Source of the DNA: Chloroflexota bacterium
GTDB lineage: Bacteria > Chloroflexota > UBA11872 > VXNJ01
Direction: 5' to 3'
Length of the DNA: 64,000 bases
NCBI GenBank assembly: GCA_965203015.1
Contig: CBDBBM010000012.1
Location: 139,445-203,444, forward strand
Both the position numbers and the translations under genes were made by a program. The notes under the pieces are model-generated. The model did no database searches. It was not told the origin of the DNA and saw only the letters and a list, made by a program, of their open reading frames with translations. This document shows positions 22,502-31,234 of this stretch, one piece after another (within the stretch, counting starts at the first letter, position 1; each line of letters opens with the position of its first letter).

Positions 22502-22510
22502 CCCCCCCCC
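22502..22510. repeat. C9 homopolymer upstream of the methyltransferase gene
   Basis: Direct count. Confidence 0.8.
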
Positions 22511-22649
22511 GTGCAGGTGAACGCGCGTGGCGGATCTATCTCTGTTTCGAACAGGGCGCGTAGGTATCTCTCCGAGGCTTTACGATCCCATTGCTGATGG
22601 TCGAATTGAGCGGCGAACAGTTCAAATGCACGACTGAGACCAAGCTCCG

Positions 22650-25600
22650 GTGACCTGGTCGGCGCCGCCCCTTCTGCCCGCACGCGATGCACCTATTGAA
22701 TGGCCGAACCCGCTGTCGGTTCCCGGGTTGGACAGCTTTTGCCGGGTTCACCTCGGCAGAGGGAAACGAAAACTTGAGGTATTAGACGTTGCGTGTACCC
22801 ACGCGCCACTTGCGGCAGACGTCCGCTCTCTCTGGTCCATCCGCTGGAACAGGCGAGCCGAGCCGGTCCTGGTTGTCGTAACTTATCCGGCCGGGGATGG
22901 CGGCAGCAATGCGACAGTCTGCGGCCCGATCGGGCCGAGCCCGTCCGTCATCAGCGGGATGGACCGCTCACTGGCTGCCCGGATCGCCGAATCCGCGCTC
23001 CAGGAACCGACGCACCATGCCGCTATTCGCAATCTCACCCTGACGCTCGAGCGAGTCCGGCAGGGTGTACCGGGGATGCGCAACGAAGGCCTCTTTGCGA
23101 CCAATGAACTCGAAAACGGCATTCCGGGTTCGGCCTCCTGGGCACAGGCCTGCGCCCGGGCCGAGGATTGGCTGGATCTGCGCGGCCGAACGCTGGTCGA
23201 ATCGCTCGGATTCCGGGTCGAGCCGTTCGAACTAGGAACCACAGTCCTTCGAGCCGCCCAATCCGGCCAAGTCGCGGGCGAGCCGCCGGCGGCGGCGAAT
23301 ACCGCGGTTGCCATCTTCTGCAACGAAGACGAGACCTTCGAATCCCGGTCGGCACGCTTTGATACCTCGCCCGTCTCGCACGCGATCGCGGTTGCTCACC
23401 GAAGCCGCATCCGATGGGTGATCCTCACCCGGGCCGGCGAAATCCGCCTCTACGCCGCCGAACCGGGGACCGGGGTCGGCGGGCGCGGACCGACTGAAAC
23501 CTACATCGAGCTGAACCTGGCGCTGTTGCCCTCCCGGATGGCCGGGTACCTCGAACTGCTGTTTTCGGCCTGCGCCCTTGCCGACGGCGGTTCCGTCGAT
23601 TCGTCGCTGGAACTCTCGGAACGCTTTTCCAGCGAACTCGCCGGCAGGCTGCGGGAGCGCATCTATTCGGAGGCGGTACCAGCGTTGGCCGCGGCTTTGG
23701 CCCGGCGCGCCGGGCCGGAACCCGGGCGCGAGGAACTTGACGAATTGTTCGCCCAGGTGATGTTGATCATCTTCCGGATCCTGTTTGTCGACTACGCCGA
23801 AGACCGTGACCTGCTGCCGTACAGGACCAATTCCGAGTACGAATCCCATTCGCTGACCGGCATCGCCCGCCGATTGGTGGAGGACGCGCGCAATGCAAAG
23901 AACGACTACGGGAGCTCGCACGACCTGTGGATTGACGTAACCCAGATCTGGCGAGCGGTGGCCGAGGGAAATTCGGACTGGGGCGTGCCCGCCTATGACG
24001 GCGGGTTGTTTTCGGCCGACCCGGAGCGGAGCCCGTTTGGGGCGGCGCTCGAAGAAATATCGTTGAGCAATTCAGAATTCGCGCCGGCCCTGCGTTCGAT
24101 TCTTGTCGACAGGGGCCCGGAGGGCTTCGGCCTGGTCGACTTCCGATCGCTTTCGGCGCGGGAGTTCGGAACCATCTACGAGGGGCTGCTCGAGTCGAAT
24201 CTTTCGGTCGCTCCGCAAGACCTATGCCTGCAAACCAGAGGCAAGAACGCGGGCATGTATCGCCCCGCGCGCGGCGAGGGCGACGAAGTCGTAGTTGCCA
24301 AGGGCCAGGTCTACCTGCAGAACCGGCTCGGCATCCGCAAGTCAACCGGAACGTACTTCACCAAACCGTTCGCGGTCAAACACATCCTCGATCACTCGCT
24401 AGATCGGGCTCTGGACGAGCACGTCGAGCGGCTGGAATCGCTGCGCCGCGCCGGCGACGAAGCCGGGCTGGCCGCGTCGTTCTTTGATTTCCGCTGCGCC
24501 GATATCGCTATGGGATCGGGGCATTTCCTGGTCGCAGCAATCGACCGGATCGAAGCGCGTTTCTCGGCTTACCTGGCCGAGCATCCGGTTGCCGCGATCG
24601 CAAATGAACTGGGCCGCATCGACTCGGCGGCGCGATCCGCGCTCGGGCCATCTTCGGCGAGCGTCGAAATCGAGACCGCGGCGTTGCTCCGCCGCCAGAT
24701 CGCGCGTCACTGCGTATACGGCGTCGACGTGAACCCCATTGCGGTTGAACTCGCCCGGGTCGCCGTCTGGGTTCATACGTTCGTCCCTGGTCTTCCGCTC
24801 TCGTTCCTAGACCACAATTTCGTCTGCGGAAACAGCCTGACCGGCATCAGCGCGCTCGCTGAAGTTGAAACCGCCATGGCCGGGACTGATTCAAGCCAAG
24901 CCGGGGAGTCGATATTCGCTGCCAACGCGCGCCGGCATATCAAGGCCGGCGAAGAACACCTTCGTCGGTTGGCGTTGACCTCCGACGCGACCCGCGCCGA
25001 AGTGGAGGAGGCCCTCTCCGCCCACCGGAACGCGGTTGCGGCGGTGAAGCCGGCCCGCGATCTATTCGACCTGATCACCGCTCACCGCGCCGGCGCCTGC
25101 CAGTTGCCCCCGATGCCGGACGAATCCGAGATTGCCGAGATCTGGAAGCGCCCAGGGACGCAGGAAGTACTTGGGCAGTTCCGGCCGATCCACTTTCCGG
25201 CGGTTTTTCCGGAGGTATTTCTGCGCCCTGAAAGATCCGGATTCGACTGCCTGATCGGAAATCCGCCCTGGGACAAACTGGTGATAAATCGGGAAATCTG
25301 GTGGGGACGCCATCTGCCCGGAGTTAGATCCCTTCCGACCGGAGAGAAGCGGGCCCAGATTGCGGAATTGACTTCGAGCCGCCCCGATCTCGGGGCCGCT
25401 TATGCCTCGGACCGCGAGGGCACCGAGGTATACAAAAAAATAGTTCGAGCTGCATTCAATCTCGGCGCGGGGGACACCGACCTCTACAAGGCGTTCGCGT
25501 GGGCGAATGTAGGACTTGCCCGATCCGGCGGCCAAATCGGCCTGATCCTGCCGCGCTCGGCAATATCCGACGCCGGTATGGCGGGGTGGCGCAACGCGCT

Positions 25601-25862
25601 GCTAGAAACGCAAAATACCCCCCCCCCCGCAAGGGACTTCACCACTCGCGGTGGCGACCCTCATCAATCACCGGGGATGGGTGTTTCCGGGGGTGCACAA
25701 CTCCTACACGGTCGCCCTGCTTGGGATCACCCGACCCTGTCGGTCGCAACGTGCCTCAACACAGCGCAATGGGTTTTCGACGGGGTCGATGGCCGGTACA
25801 CGGTCGCGTTCGTCAACGCCTGCAGGCCCAATCCACGATCCGAACCAAGGGGGTGGGTTTGA
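22650..25862 (+). CDS. Type IIG/Eco57I-like N6-adenine DNA methyltransferase, main subunit with switchable C-terminus
   Basis: WVILT..EIRLY, FGTIYEGLL, RKSTGTYFT, motif I DIAMGSGHFL, YGVDVNP, motif IV NPPW, DLYKAF. Confidence 0.9.
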   Translation: MTWSAPPLLPARDAPIEWPNPLSVPGLDSFCRVHLGRGKRKLEVLDVACTHAPLAADVRSLWSIRWNRRAEPVLVVVTYPAGDGGSNATVCGPIGPSPSVISGMDRSLAARIAESALQEPTHHAAIRNLTLTLERVRQGVPGMRNEGLFATNELENGIPGSASWAQACARAEDWLDLRGRTLVESLGFRVEPFELGTTVLRAAQSGQVAGEPPAAANTAVAIFCNEDETFESRSARFDTSPVSHAIAVAHRSRIRWVILTRAGEIRLYAAEPGTGVGGRGPTETYIELNLALLPSRMAGYLELLFSACALADGGSVDSSLELSERFSSELAGRLRERIYSEAVPALAAALARRAGPEPGREELDELFAQVMLIIFRILFVDYAEDRDLLPYRTNSEYESHSLTGIARRLVEDARNAKNDYGSSHDLWIDVTQIWRAVAEGNSDWGVPAYDGGLFSADPERSPFGAALEEISLSNSEFAPALRSILVDRGPEGFGLVDFRSLSAREFGTIYEGLLESNLSVAPQDLCLQTRGKNAGMYRPARGEGDEVVVAKGQVYLQNRLGIRKSTGTYFTKPFAVKHILDHSLDRALDEHVERLESLRRAGDEAGLAASFFDFRCADIAMGSGHFLVAAIDRIEARFSAYLAEHPVAAIANELGRIDSAARSALGPSSASVEIETAALLRRQIARHCVYGVDVNPIAVELARVAVWVHTFVPGLPLSFLDHNFVCGNSLTGISALAEVETAMAGTDSSQAGESIFAANARRHIKAGEEHLRRLALTSDATRAEVEEALSAHRNAVAAVKPARDLFDLITAHRAGACQLPPMPDESEIAEIWKRPGTQEVLGQFRPIHFPAVFPEVFLRPERSGFDCLIGNPPWDKLVINREIWWGRHLPGVRSLPTGEKRAQIAELTSSRPDLGAAYASDREGTEVYKKIVRAAFNLGAGDTDLYKAFAWANVGLARSGGQIGLILPRSAISDAGMAGWRNALLETQNTPPPARDFTTRGGDPHQSPGMGVSGGAQLLHGRPAWDHPTLSVATCLNTAQWVFDGVDGRYTVAFVNACRPNPRSEPRGWV
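25618..25628. repeat. C11 homopolymer upstream of cassette pair A/B
   Basis: Direct count; 22 nt upstream of cassette A. Confidence 0.85.
25651..25826 (+). repeat. Tandem alternative TRD cassettes A (25651-25734) and B (25743-25826) in different frames
   Basis: VATLINHRGWVFPGVHNSYTVALLGITR vs VATCLNTAQWVFDGVDGRYTVAFVNACR, 14/28 identical, offset 92 nt. Confidence 0.88.
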
Positions 25863-26271
25863 CAGCCAGGAGCCGTGGGTTGAAATCTATCCGGGTCCGG
25901 CAAGCACCCCGGAAAGTTTCCGCGAACTGATCAACGCGGGACCCGTGAGGGTCCCGGTTGCCGAATTCCGGGGCTGGTCCGAAACGGCGGCATTTCCGCA
26001 GATACCAACCAAACCAGCATTTCGGGTCTGGCGCAAGATCAAGCGCCACCCAAGGTTTGACGGCGCTGATCTTGAACGCACTACGGGGGGGGGGGTCCGG
26101 CGGACCTGGCGCTTCCGCCCGGTGGCCGAACTCCACGCGACCCAGGATCGGGGCCATTTTGTAGGCGACGATGGCGCTTCCGCCCGGTCCGCGAACTCGA
26201 TTCCACGCGAGACCGCCCCCGGTTCGTCGGGGACGACGGCAAAAGCGCCCAGGAGCAAGCGCAGTGACTGA
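25859..26271 (+). CDS. Middle segment of the split methyltransferase/TRD; start and linkage uncertain
   Basis: EIYPGPAS..WSETAAFPQIP..VWRKIKRHPRFDG followed by G11 and cassettes C1/C2. Confidence 0.65.
26085..26095. repeat. G11 homopolymer upstream of cassette pair C1/C2
   Basis: Direct count; 11 nt upstream of cassette C1. Confidence 0.85.
26107..26240 (+). repeat. Tandem alternative cassettes C1 (from 26107) and C2 (from 26172) in different frames
   Basis: WRFRPVAELHATQDRGHFVGDDG vs WRFRPVRELDSTRDRPRFVGDDG; first 17 nt identical; offset 65 nt. Confidence 0.9.
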
Positions 26272-27021
26272 TGTCTGGCCGGTGTACAAGGGCGATTCAT
26301 TCAACATCTGGGAACCAGACACCGGGAGCTTCTACGACAGCGCCGACGCCGGCAGCATCACCGCGCACCTTTACCAAAAACGCCTGCGCCAGAGCCGGAC
26401 CGGGTCCTCGGCGTTTCACGAAGTGGACCGTGCCGTGATCGAGGATCCGGCCACCCTGCCCTGCCTGTCCCCGCGGATCACGTTCCGCGACGTGACCAAC
26501 CCCACCAACACCAGAACCATGGTGGCGGCGCTGATTCCGGGGGAGCGGCTGCTGGTCCACATCGCCCCCTACCTGCTCCAGCTTGCCGGGGATGATTCCG
26601 ATACCGCTTTTGTGATCGGGGTTCTTTCGTCGATGCCACTTGATTGGCAGGCAAGGCGCACGGTTGAACTCCACATGACATTCGCCCAGCTGAACCAGCT
26701 CTCATTCCCTGACCCAGGACCGGGCGATCCGGTCCGGGAACGGATTGCCCAGATTTCGGCCTGGCTGGCCTCTGCCGACCCGCGTCTGGCCAACTGGGCC
26801 CGCAACGCCTGGGCCAAATTGCCGAAATACCCCCCCCCTCTCAGCGCCTGCGACCAGAGCTGCTGGCCGAACTCGACGCCTGCGTGGCATTCCTCTACGG
26901 TTTCGACGAATGCGACTTGAGGGTCGTATTCGACACGTTTGGTCGACCCGGGCAATGGGACGCTCGCCGTGACCGAAGCATCCCGTGGCTCCGGCGAATT
27001 GCCGCAAGGGCGGCGATTTGA
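26264..27021 (+). CDS. TRD/specificity subunit D1 (C9 tract at 26830-38; full length with C10)
   Basis: AGGAG then GTG 26264; WPVYKGDSFNIW..PRITFRDVTNPTNTRTM; LLAELDACVAFLYG in the shifted frame, stop 27019-21. Confidence 0.8.
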
Positions 27022-27781
27022 TGATCGCGGTGGACAAATCTGGCCAGTTTGTTCCGGCAAAAGTTTCAACGTCTGGAAGCCAGATACCGGGAATTACTAC
27101 GACAGCGCCGACGCCGAGTGCATCACCGAGCACCTCTACCGGAAGCGCCTCCGCCAGAGCCGGACCGCGTCCTCCGCCTTTCACGAACTGGATCCTGCGG
27201 TGATCGAGGACCCGGCCACGCTGCCGTGTCGGCATCCGCGAATAGTTTTCCGGGATGTGACCAATTCCACCAACACTAGGACCATGGTGACGGCGCTGAT
27301 TCCCGGGGAGCGGGTCACTACCGAAAGCGCTCCTTACCTGCTGCAATTGGCCGGTGAAAAGAGAGATGTGGCGTACGTTCTTGGCGTGCTTGCTTCGATG
27401 GTTTTTGACTGGCAATCCCGCCGTACCGTGGAGTTGCATGTCAAATTTGCGCAGTTGAATGCGTTTTCGATCCCGGACCCGGGACCGGGCGACCCCATTC
27501 GCGACCGGGTTACGGAAATAGCTGGCCGGATCGCCGCCGCCGACGAGCGTTTCGCGGAATGGGCCGAGGAAGTCGGTGTCCCGGTCGGATCGATTCGCGA
27601 TTCGGGCGAATTTGAGAACCTCCTGGCCGAGCTCGACGCGTGCGTGGCCCACCTCTACGGCCTTGACGCCGCAGACCTTCGGACGATTTACGAGACGTTC
27701 AGCGGATCGGTCGACTATTCGGGCAGAAGCCGATCCGCGGCAATGCACCTGCTGCGAATACAGGGAGCGAATCGGGCTTGA
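27021..27781 (+). CDS. TRD/specificity subunit D2, paralog of D1 (start needs +1 nt near 27037, or an upstream alternative start)
   Basis: WPVCSGKSFNVW..PRIVFRDVTNSTNTRTM..LLAELDACVAHLYGL. Confidence 0.82.
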
Positions 27782-30700
27782 ACGACTCCGAGGTCCGCGG
27801 TGGATTCGACTACGGTGACCGCAACAAACCCGAGCTTGCGACCAACCGCCCCGGTGAGCGGACCGCCGACGCGCTTGAGCGGTTTCTGAGCTTTGCGGCT
27901 TCGCTCCCTGGGAACCCGCGCGCCGATATTGCCACCGGCTACTTCAACCTGGGTGGCTACACGCTGCTGGCCGACACTCTGGACAAATTCGAGAATGTCC
28001 GCTTACTGCTGGGCGCCGAGCCGGAACCCAGCCGAGGCGAACGTCGTATCCGCGAAATCGGCAAGGAACCAGCCGATAGCTCTCGTTCAGAGGAACTGTT
28101 GCTTGAACGGGCCTTGGAGGGATTGGACAGAAGCCTCGCCGGGGGCCGAAACCTACTCGGGTACAGCCGCGAAATCGATGGCCATTCAAAACGCCTTATC
28201 AAATGGCTTTCTTCCGGGCGCGTCATGGTCCGGCGATACGAGCACGGGTTCCTGCACGGAAAGGCCTTTATCGCCGCCGACAACAGCCATGGCCTTGTGG
28301 CGGGATCATCCAATTTCACGCGCGCCGGATTGACCACGAATCTCGAACTGAATCTTGGCAACTATCAGCCACACGTGGTTGGAAGAGTACAGGCGTGGTT
28401 TGACCAGCTCTGGGCAGAGTCGCGCGATTACGACTTGGCGAAGTTGTTCGAAGAGCGATTCGAACCCCACCCGCCGAATCTGATTTTTCTGCGCATGCTT
28501 TGGGAGCTTTACGGAAGTGAGCTCGGCGCTGACGCGCGACCGGAAGCGGGGGGCCTCCACCTGACCCAGTTCCAAAATGACGGCCTGGCGCGGGCCGGTT
28601 CGATTCTTGCCAGGCGCGGCGGAGTCCTGATCGCCGATGAAGTCGGTCTGGGCAAGACATTCCTGGCCGGCAAGCTCATTGAGGCCGCCGCCCTCGACCG
28701 CCGCCAGCGGGTGCTGGTCGTTGCGCCCGCCGCCCTCCGCGACGGTACGTGGGACGCGTTCCGGAATGAGTTCAAACTTCCCTTCCAGATCGTCTCATTT
28801 GAGGAACTGACCAGGGATCGACGCCTGAATCCGTCGGCGCCGCCGGGGTCCGACCCTCTTGCCGGTGCAGACCCGGACGAATTCGCGTTGGTTGTCGTCG
28901 ACGAGGCCCACCGTCTGCGCAATCCGTCCACTCAGCGTGCCCAGGCAGTCCGAAGACTGCTCGCCGGGAAAAGCCCCAAGAAACTGGTGCTGCTGACCGC
29001 GACGCCGGTCAACAACAGCCTCTGGGACCTGTTTCACATTCTGGGCTTCTTCCTCCAGCACGGACGCCTCGCTGGCCGACGCCGGGATTCTGTCGCTGAA
29101 GGAGAGGTTCGCGACCGCGATGCGGCTCGGCCCAGAAGATTTGACGCCGGAACTTCTTTTCGACGTGCTGGACGCTGTGGCGGTGAGGCGCACCCGCAAA
29201 TTCATAAAGCGCTACTACGCCAACGCCACGATCAGGCTCGGCCGGGCTGGCACGGGCGGTGAGGTCAGGGTCGTTTTCCCCACGCCGAGAGTGCGTCGGC
29301 TGGACTACGAGCTGGACGCGGCCCTGCGTCCCGGTTTCTTCGAACGCTTCGAGGAGGCCCTTTCGCCTGACTCCGATTTAGACCGCGATCCGCGGCCCCA
29401 AGATCGCGACCAACCGCGCCGCCGGTCGCTCACCTTTGCGCGCTATTTGAGTTCGCGCTACCTGCGTCCGGAGCACGTCGATCCTGACGATCGGGAAGGC
29501 CAGTACCAGATCCTCAACGCCGGGATCCTCAAATCCGGGCTGCTCAAGCGCTTCGAATCCTCACCGGCCGCATTCGTGAAGACCTGCCGCCGCATGGTGC
29601 GGGGGTTCGACGCTTTCCTCGATCTGCTGGCGCGCGGCCAGGTGGCGTCGGCGGCGGCCCTTGCCGAATGGTCGGCGACCGACTTTGACGAGGAAGGATT
29701 CGAGGAATTCCTGTCCGAATTTGGTTCGGAAATGGCCCCGGCCGCGCATTACCACGCCGCGCGGCTCTCAAACGACATCGAATCGGACCGCAATCTGCTG
29801 AACTCGCTCGCAGACGAGATCGGACAAATCGGTCCGGACCAGGATCCGAATCTCGCCGTCCTGCTCGACCAATTGGCCGCGATCGCGGCAGCGGCCGCGC
29901 GTGAAGGCATCGGCGGCCAGGACCGGCGCGACCGGCGCAAAGTGATCGTATTCAGTTATTTCGCCGATACCGTCGCGTGGATCGCCGATCACCTGCGGGC
30001 GGCGGTTCGGACCGATCCCCGGTTGGCTGATTACCGTGGTCGGATCGTGGAGGTGACCGGCGGCAGCGGCAATTCGGCGGCGGCAATGCGCGGCTTCGCG
30101 CCGCGCACCAGCGCCCGGTCGGAGCGCGAGGATGACGACCTCTACGACCTGCTCATTTCGACCGACGTGTTGGCAGAAGGGGTGAACCTCCAGCAGGCCC
30201 GCCACATCATCAATTACGACCTGCCGTGGAACCCGATGCGGCTGGTGCAACGACACGGCCGAATAGACCGGCTGGGGTCTTCGCACTCAGAGGTATTTAT
30301 CCATTGCGTTTTCCCCGATAAGCGACTGGATGAGCTACTTGGGCTGGAGGAGCGAATCCGGGCCAAGCTGCACCAGGCCGCAAATTCCCTGGGCGCGCCG
30401 GCTGTGCTGCCGGACCAGGCCGGCGGCCGGGGATTCGTCTCCGATACGCGGGGGGAGATCGAACGCCTGCGGCGCGCCGATCCGGCGCTGTTCGAACGTG
30501 GCGGTACCGGGCGCAGCGCGCTGTCCGGAGAGGAATTCCGGCGCGACCTCTGGGAGGCGATGCGGGACCAATCCCTGGCCGATCAAATAAGGGAACTGCC
30601 CTGGGGGTCGGGCTCGGGAATGATTGCCGGCACCGGTGGGGCGGTCGCGGATTCGACCGCGTTCGTCTTCTGCGCGCGGATCGGTGATCTCGATCGTCCC

Positions 30701-31234
30701 GAATTTCGGCTCGTAGAGCTGCCCACGAGCGCGAGCGTCGGGGAACCCGACGCCGCCAGCACATCCAGCGATCTTTTGGTCTGCCTGGACCGTGCGCAAC
30801 CGCCGGCCGGCAGCTTGCAGCCGCGGACGCTCCCGGCCCACGTTTACGACCGCGCGTTTGACGCCTGGCAGATTGCCCGTGATGACATCATCCGCTCCCG
30901 CCGAGCCGCGGCGGACCCGGCGACTTACCAGCAACCGCTGGCAAAGGCGTTGCGCGAGTCGGCCCGGTTGATTCGAGATCATCCGCCGCCGGACTTGGCC
31001 CGGGAAGAAGTCGAGAGGCTAGTAGATTCGATCGAGGCGCCACACCCGCACCGGACGGTCACGGAATTCCGAACGGCGCTCCGGGGTTCGGAGGTGCCGG
31101 CCGAACAGGCCGCGGCGGCGGTTGCGGTAGTCCGCGACCTCGGCCTGCAACCCTACGAGCCGCCGGAGCCCCTGCCGCCGATCGAAGAGTCGGACATAAA
31201 CCTGATCTGCTGGCTGGCAATTTTGCCTGAGTGA
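27778..31234 (+). CDS. PLD nuclease-SNF2 helicase fusion (apparent frameshift ~29057)
   Basis: LHGKAF..GSSNFT; ADEVGLGKT, DEAH, TATP, TDVLAEGVNLQ, QRHGRIDR. Confidence 0.9.

Follow-up and report, generated by a model that had tools for sequence, protein, structure and literature searches.

A homopolymeric tract as a candidate three-way selector between paralogous recognition subunits of a split adenine methylase

The stretch of DNA analysed here (hereafter the window) comprises 64,000 nucleotides of a contig from a Chloroflexota bacterium, and the genes of interest occupy positions 22650-31234 of its plus strand. The first encodes a large subunit (22650..25862), consisting of an N-terminal domain and a gamma-type N6-adenine methylase (motifs DIAMGSGHF and NPPW), which is read here through a cassette that we term A2. 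This gene contains three repeat-gated choices. At the first (25618..25863), a C11 tract leads into cassette A1 or A2, and A2 is followed by a +1 frameshift-like site (25848-25863), which we take to be of the RF2 type and which returns to the main frame; a CTT-TGA form of this site is found in five other loci. At the second (26085..26271), a G11 tract precedes cassettes B1 (26107) and B2 (26172), which provide the recognition domain with its first strand and loop. The third, a C9 tract, lies within the first of two tandem genes, D1 and D2, and is the subject of most of what follows. Runs of G or C of at least nine bases are infrequent in this genome, numbering only 12 in 2.24 Mb, and the methylase gene holds three of them (C11 at 25618, G11 at 26085 and C9 at 26830), with a fourth upstream. 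The latter, a C9 run at 22502-22510, lies 140 nt 5' of the methylase start behind an AT-rich stretch and could tune a promoter; a promoter consensus scan returned 0 sites. The third frame after G11 is blocked by a single TAG at 26162-26164, and would run straight into D1 if this codon were missing.

D1 opens at a GTG at 26264, behind a strong Shine-Dalgarno-like AGGAG (26251..26255), with a duplex energy of -6.6 where the genome median is -3.9. This start overlaps the termination codons of the two B-cassette frames, TGA at 26265-67 and at 26269-71 (GTGA and GTGACTGA at 26264). As assembled, D1 is a tail-less reading frame of 218 aa (26264..26920; P0124). D2 (26969..27781) is an intact frame of 270 aa which opens at a GTG 50 nt inside the D1 tail, a start common to proteins P0001-P0004, and its Shine-Dalgarno sequence is ordinary, at -3.9 equal to the genome median. 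The D2 stop overlaps the TTG start (TTGA at 27778) of a gene for a PLD (HKD-type) nuclease fused to an SNF2 helicase (27778..31234). This helicase gene is broken at 29062, probably through an assembly error: single extra bases at 22587 and 29062 of the window are absent from three or four sequencing runs.

The reading frames of the locus cover, in order, the PADLOC model PDLC03620 (type IIG, 1378 positions; E 1.5e-178), with the 1070-aa large frame at 58-986, a middle piece at 1054-1128, and each D from 1132 to 1310 (D1) or 1359. In fused relatives, a single frame of about 1300-1500 aa holds the whole protein, and relatives often have one B cassette fused to D. Pfam returned no match for D1, D2 or the middle piece, and a sequence search of solved structures matched the methylase part only. 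The C-terminal 449 aa of a fused relative (L034), modelled with AlphaFold2 at a mean pLDDT of 91, matched M.TaqI (Z 16.9, rmsd 3.3, 280 aligned), CamA (Z 16.1), BseCI (Z 15.9), BpuSI (Z 12.8), PglX (Z 12.5) and MmeI (Z 11.1, rmsd 5.0, 322 aligned), with Foldseek in agreement on the methylase matches. Residues ~167-395 of this model also match type I HsdS recognition domains (1ydx, Z 10.2, rmsd 3.4, 164 aligned; 7vs4_C, Z 9.3). D corresponds to about 205-449 of this model, that is, to three quarters of the recognition domain and three tail helices, while the first strand of the domain is supplied by cassette B, outside D. By profile and model, D1 and D2 are the C-terminal three quarters of a recognition domain, detached from the rest of a type IIG-like adenine methylase. 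The original prediction had regarded them as free-standing specificity subunits; they are indeed separate frames, each supplying most of a target-recognition domain, but it had missed that they are pieces of a split methylase with two more repeat-gated cassette pairs upstream.

How D might rejoin the large subunit was addressed with a model of the middle piece and B1 in complex with D2, which scored 0.93 against 0.11 for the best control, with at least 91% contact agreement between runs and partner pLDDT of at least 91. The mark applied to such scores is reached by 116/157 solved complexes and 2/215 mismatched pairs, and as the halves of a split gene may pass through likeness to solved one-chain methylases, the score supports binding rather than demonstrating it. 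In the model, B pairs with D residues 102-106 while tail residues 209-222 pack on a middle-piece helix. D is thus predicted to bind the large subunit through the strand beside cassette B and through its tail helices, of which the first lies inside the stretches of the fused-relative model aligned to CamA, BseCI, BpuSI and MmeI.

As in type IIG and IIL enzymes, a recognition domain stands C-terminal to gamma-class N6-adenine methylase motifs; the locus departs from the design of these enzymes, with nuclease, methylase and recognition domain on one polypeptide, in that D is a separate frame in both productive B frames. Across 38 of 38 aligned rows, the N-terminal domain shows no E-x-K on the strand where we assume that a PD-(D/E)xK nuclease motif would lie, and restriction therefore likely falls to the PLD-SNF2 gene, which would make the latter the likely restriction partner. 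With HsdS, D has in common that it is a free subunit with the HsdS recognition fold (as modelled for the fused relative), but an HsdS comprises two complete domains, or a dimer of halves, and serves HsdM and HsdR, whereas each D lacks the first strand of a single domain and has IIG-like and PLD-SNF2 partners.

D1 and D2 are tandem direct paralogues, 765 nt apart, with 71% DNA and 70% protein identity over 176 codons, a longest identical run of 20 nt, and dN 0.23, dS 1.14 and dN/dS 0.20. The presence of two such paralogues had been anticipated in the original prediction, which also raised the possibility of a misassembled duplication. This can be ruled out, as both copies are spanned by single contigs in three public runs: X1, which differs from the window by no substitution and is perhaps its source sample, and X2 and X3, which come from two other studies.

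The two copies differ where specificity is likely to be set. Among 120 D homologues (residues numbered from the W of WPV), the most strongly co-varying core pairs are 75/78 (z 12.3), which is N-N in 65 and R-D in 54, and 96/133 (z 10.4); a tail pair, 221/224 (z 11.4), marks tail type. Pair 75/78 is common to D1 and D2, but residues 95/96 are HI in D1 and ES in D2, and 135 is T and K, respectively. The likely base-reading residues are therefore H95/I96 and H133/T135 in D1 (26558..26680) and E95/S96 and H133/K135 in D2 (27323..27445). These D positions fall near MmeI 751, 773/774 and 806-810, an approximate correspondence interpolated from structural-alignment end points; in MmeI these positions read bases 3, 4 and 6 (PMC4833311). 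The same patches also distinguish the two copies from each other in the four further two-copy loci in which both were caught by our pattern. All four patch differences proposed beforehand are present in the sequence, and the idea that D1 and D2 differ at likely base-reading residues stands, with the exception of TNPTN/TNSTN, which differs only outside the co-varying pair (N..N in both). A swap of residues 95/96 and 135 is predicted to alter the methylated site at one or two bases and, with it, the site restricted by the PLD-SNF2 partner.

Immediately before the D1 tail lies the C9 tract (26830-26838), which, with the adjoining TCTC, constitutes the putative frame selector (26830..26842). Each of its frames leads to a different end. 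In the state assembled in the window, D1 stops at 26918-20, 48 nt before D2. As had been foreseen, one added base brings the LLAELDACVA..YG tail into frame, and D1 then runs at full length through three helices, from LLAELDAC, to a TGA at 27019-27021 (tail frame 26839..27021, also entered at -2 nt), reaching 50 nt beyond the D2 start. In the -1 state, the frame stays open for 43 codons (26839..26972) and ends at TGA 26970-72 on the D2 GTG (26969-71), forming a GTGA overlap at 26969. That all three frames are meaningful had been overlooked in the original prediction, which also had full-length D1 stopping on a TGATG ahead of D2. Full-length D1 does end on that TGA; the ATG (27021), in frame 0 against frame 2 for D2, is out of frame and is rejected as a D2 start. 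It opens instead a 60-codon out-of-frame ORF (27021..27203), a possible ribosome decoy. In six of six related loci, including the window, such a start lies in, or within 2 nt of, the full-length D1 stop, but A or G before TGA is common and the decoy idea is correspondingly weak.

Products matching all three D1 states are present in the protein collection, at 218, 251 (P0071) and 235 aa (P0125, P0126, P0127), and all three frames of the C9 region were found in different populations. Relative to the window, the tract region is unchanged in X1, 2 nt shorter in X2 (where D1 is full length, as in P0071) and 1 nt shorter in X3. D1 is thus gated by a tract of variable length, as originally proposed, and the ten-base state is not fixed. 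As the runs are represented by consensus contigs, these are differences between populations rather than switching inside one; in a further run, X4, contigs break at all three tracts of the gene, which, as far as contigs can tell, fits mixed lengths. A threshold in use for phase variation is a repeat of at least nine bases, not a multiple of three, inside an ORF and varying (PMC7383803), and C9, with three net lengths between runs, falls within it.

Long G or C runs may be misread in sequencing, and one might suppose that D1 is merely a decaying duplicate whose tract-length differences are sequencing or assembly errors, especially as other single-base errors occur in the window and the evidence consists of contigs. 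We regard this as very improbable and largely refuted. The shortening in X2 is the loss of a TC beside the run rather than a run-length call, D1 is 96-99% conserved across samples, and the dN/dS of 0.20 argues against decay. Moreover, repeats of different units (C, G, AG) occur at the same place in related loci, and only in upstream copies. The locus is real and conserved, and likely to be functional.

Among the loci fetched, a repeat just before the tail was found in 6/9 upstream D copies and in 0/57 single or last copies (two spurious motif hits were dropped from the latter count, and a few loci are near-duplicates). The six tandem loci with a repeat are the window (C9), L030 (G24), L031 (G14), L067 (G12), L068 ((AG)10) and L072 (G13). 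The other three upstream copies belong to one array of a different design (L076:3580-6620, from G366), in which four D copies stand in tandem and each downstream ATG overlaps the previous stop and is followed by C9-C11. Similarly, GGG or PPP precedes the upstream-type tail in 5/5 proteins against 1/113 others. A single D copy near oriented position 4100 of L084 has its tail out of frame and no repeat at the thresholds used.

Frame architecture is also common to these loci. In 6/6, the -1 frame ends on the D2 start, with a stop/start overlap of the -4, -1 or -8 nt kind associated with termination-reinitiation coupling, while D2's own frame has an earlier stop in 6/6. When codons are shuffled synonymously, the probability that the -1 frame remains open is 0.15-0.31 per locus, values whose product would overstate significance since the six loci are kin rather than independent; the same frame is open for at least 95 nt in 28/58 single or last rows. 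In five loci the overlap is an ATGA that follows automatically from the W-D-E codons of the D1 tail, so that in these the information lies only in the frame being open. The window lacks its relatives' ATG and uses GTGA 9 nt downstream of their ATGA, implying that start and stop moved together. Among the best 120 matches to D1, 57 are of D1 type and were sorted by hand into 17 full-length proteins, 16 that follow the -1 frame to the D2 start, 19 with an early stop, which is in D2's frame, and five unassignable; two short products among the latter (P0140, P0159) might have ended early while reading the -1 frame. One further protein, P0147, combines a D2-like start with a D1-like end of the coupled state and probably comes from the middle of a cascade with at least three copies.

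On these grounds, we think it probable that D1 and D2 are alternative recognition subunits of a split adenine methylase, and that the C tract acts as a three-way selector of D1, D2 or neither. Ribosomes ending the large subunit, the B1 and B2 frames of which both stop on the D1 start, would restart at the D1 GTG. In the +1 state, full D1 would be made and ribosomes would pass the D2 start by 50 nt before stopping, leaving D2 poorly made. In the -1 state, a tail-less D1 would end on the D2 GTG, and D2 would be made by termination-reinitiation. In the window state, where the stop falls 48 nt short of D2, little of either would be made; reinitiation relies on overlapping genes and is almost abolished at a distance of about 20 nt (PMC10666635). 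D docks by its tail helices in the predicted complex, so a tail-less D1 would assemble poorly. The expression and specificities of D1 and D2 in this scheme are what we infer from the above.

The original prediction had placed D1 under ON/OFF control in competition with D2. That the tract gates D1 stands. A constant D2, made from its own ribosome-binding site while the tract only toggles D1, so that D1-ON cells hold both specificities in competition, we consider doubtful. The average Shine-Dalgarno sequence of D2 does make some uncoupled D2 possible, D2 is intact in every population examined, and arrays of specificity genes with a repeat in each are known from Mycoplasma dispar (PMC7383803), L076 being similar. 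What a constant D2 leaves unexplained is the openness of the -1 frame as far as the D2 start, in 6/6 loci and 16/16 assignable proteins, and the joint displacement of the D2 start and the -1 stop in the window lineage. The termination of the -1 frame on the D2 start codon in 6/6 loci favours a reciprocal selector over a gated D1 beside a constant D2.

A further possibility concerns the tail-less D1, which might be active in the manner of a truncated HsdS, or a +1 frameshift at ATT-TGA (27016-27021) might join D1 and D2 in one protein; in either case the tract would alter specificity with coupling playing no part. Truncated HsdS (NgoAV) and a C-terminal add-on (H. pylori JHP1272) do switch specificity (PMC7383803, PMC3936762), the truncated D1 retains all patch residues, and an SD-like run precedes the ATT-TGA. 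We nevertheless hold the chance of this to be remote: the tail forms part of the predicted docking interface, with its first helix in the structurally aligned stretches described above, and the NTT-TGA site is missing at the D1 end in 5/5 other loci, on which ground the frameshift fusion was rejected.

Recombination between the direct repeats, which the original prediction suggested could add hybrids, deserves separate consideration. The window D1 and D2 are sisters in the tree (96/97 support), are closer in their 5' half (78%) than in their 3' half (65%), and D1 carries a tail of the type common to other first copies, being 68% identical to the first-copy tail of L030 and 41% to the second. 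In X4, D2 has a diverged block at 27306-27505, overlapping the likely base-reading residues, of which P0002 has a third allele. A low-depth X2 contig joins a D1-like 30-mer to D2-like sequence (by hand count, 25/30 matches to D1 and 16/30 to D2), while a low-depth X6 contig joins a D2 start to D1-like sequence; both mosaics may stem from another strain. These observations show that sequence is exchanged over evolutionary time, yet exchange is not the evident fast switch. Past exchange and mosaic alleles are thus in line with what had been proposed, whereas no clean D1/D2 deletion hybrid was found among the joints listed for five runs. We hold it very unlikely that the pair serves as a recombination reservoir, with deletion or gene conversion as the main source of altered specificity and the tract secondary, the two direct repeats being only 71% identical with no identical run beyond 20 nt, and no recombinase gene being present among the flanking ORFs scanned. 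Likewise, the 25 longest of 353 pairs include none that links D1 and D2 in inverted orientation, so the inverted repeats and site-specific recombinase that define an invertible hsdS shufflon were not found; the copies are direct repeats.

The distribution of the locus bears on its origin. A D query found no match in 6/6 same-genus genomes, and the closest D matches among the fetched genomes are from Acidimicrobiales, which together suggest that 22650-31234 is a horizontally acquired island. A 25-letter degenerate pattern for the D1-type tail matched 0/401 genomes of the relatives' phylum and 0 viral contigs. The data sets listed as carrying the sequence included none of RNA.

Combined with the two upstream cassette switches, selection between D1 and D2 would yield up to 2x2x2 specificities together with OFF states. 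We lean, by a small measure, towards a general reading in which one repeat serves as a multiplexer of two genes, its off-frame reading kept open by selection, and in which, together with cassette switches (one of them closed by the presumed RF2-type frameshift), it provides combinatorial specificities without DNA rearrangement. Related loci with two or three B cassettes have CT or GA repeats, or repeats with units of 4, 5, 7 or 8 bases, ahead of them, while no repeats were found in most one-chain, single-cassette loci. In one locus (L026:3123-12840), a single helicase follows two full methylase-plus-D units in tandem, both of which carry three B cassettes and a repeat of 7 bases. A second Eco57I-like methylase in the genome (L087:337-3436, on G000:C24) is split by a G12 (L087:2965) before its C-terminal helices, apparently as a simple ON/OFF switch. 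A distant methylase from Rhodothermales (L028:6203-7100) has a G12 ahead of two cassettes, while its three short alternative versions of an FRDVT..T recognition patch follow a (CCCGA)n repeat, and the design thus extends beyond the subfamily of the window methylase.

Several known systems resemble parts of this arrangement. Among them are the H. pylori type IIG enzymes JHP1272 and HP1353-HP1354 (Hpy99XIV, HpyAXVI), IIG-type methylases with homopolymer tracts; in these, as described in PMC3936762, specificity changes when a frameshift brings in a recognition domain that is duplicated in part. The additional domain there joins the same chain in cis, whereas here the alternatives are encoded as distinct genes, between which the frame seems to direct ribosomes. 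Alternative specificities also arise from simple repeats in hsdS genes (NgoAV, the extended hsdS of Mannheimia, and the AG-repeat arrays of Mycoplasma dispar), among which several specificity genes may stand in a row and with which D has the recognition fold in common (PMC7383803). HsdS is, however, a whole two-domain subunit with active truncated forms, for which that account describes no coupling to a downstream paralogue; D is three quarters of one domain, completed by a strand of the large subunit. The MmeI family (type IIL) has the same methylase and recognition-domain architecture and co-varying residue pairs that set specificity, the spacing of its pair 774/810 (36) being close to that of 96/133 in D (37), but its members are, in the account of PMC4833311, single chains with their own nuclease and no phase variation. 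SpnIII-type shufflons likewise hold duplicated, distinct specificity genes in one locus, although these recombine at inverted repeats (PMC7394358), while the copies here are direct, 71% identical and repeat-gated. HKD-helicase defence loci (type-2 BR, DISARM class I) place an adenine methylase beside an HKD nuclease-SNF2 fusion, as here and as the PADLOC matches also reflect; in contrast to those described (PMC12839542), the recognition domain of our locus is C-terminal rather than nested in the methylase. Among the ORFs scanned (six locus proteins and one HNH gene), there was no DUF499 ATPase and no DrmA/B/C-like gene, and the other flanking ORFs, read by eye, are housekeeping-like. The locus is not a canonical IIG system, being split and free of a nuclease motif, nor is it an HsdS or a shufflon, and our searches of the open-access literature listed no description of a repeat choosing among paralogous subunits by way of coupling.

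Phase variation driven by repeats is usually read as ON or OFF, or as a long versus a short protein. Here, the off-frame reading itself appears functional, in that it would switch on the neighbouring paralogue, and the choice between D1 and D2 would alter the DNA sequence that cells mark and defend. If true, in dozens of bacteria, marine or sponge-associated, live switches are being labelled 'pseudogenes' or 'hypothetical proteins' by annotation pipelines, and populations could vary restriction specificity combinatorially against phages without recourse to recombinases. A recognition domain split in this manner, with its residue pairs catalogued, would be a kit for reading and engineering methylase specificity. 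Assembled from slippage, frameshifting and coupling, the system would, if our reading is correct, amount to a bacterial analogue of mutually exclusive exons.
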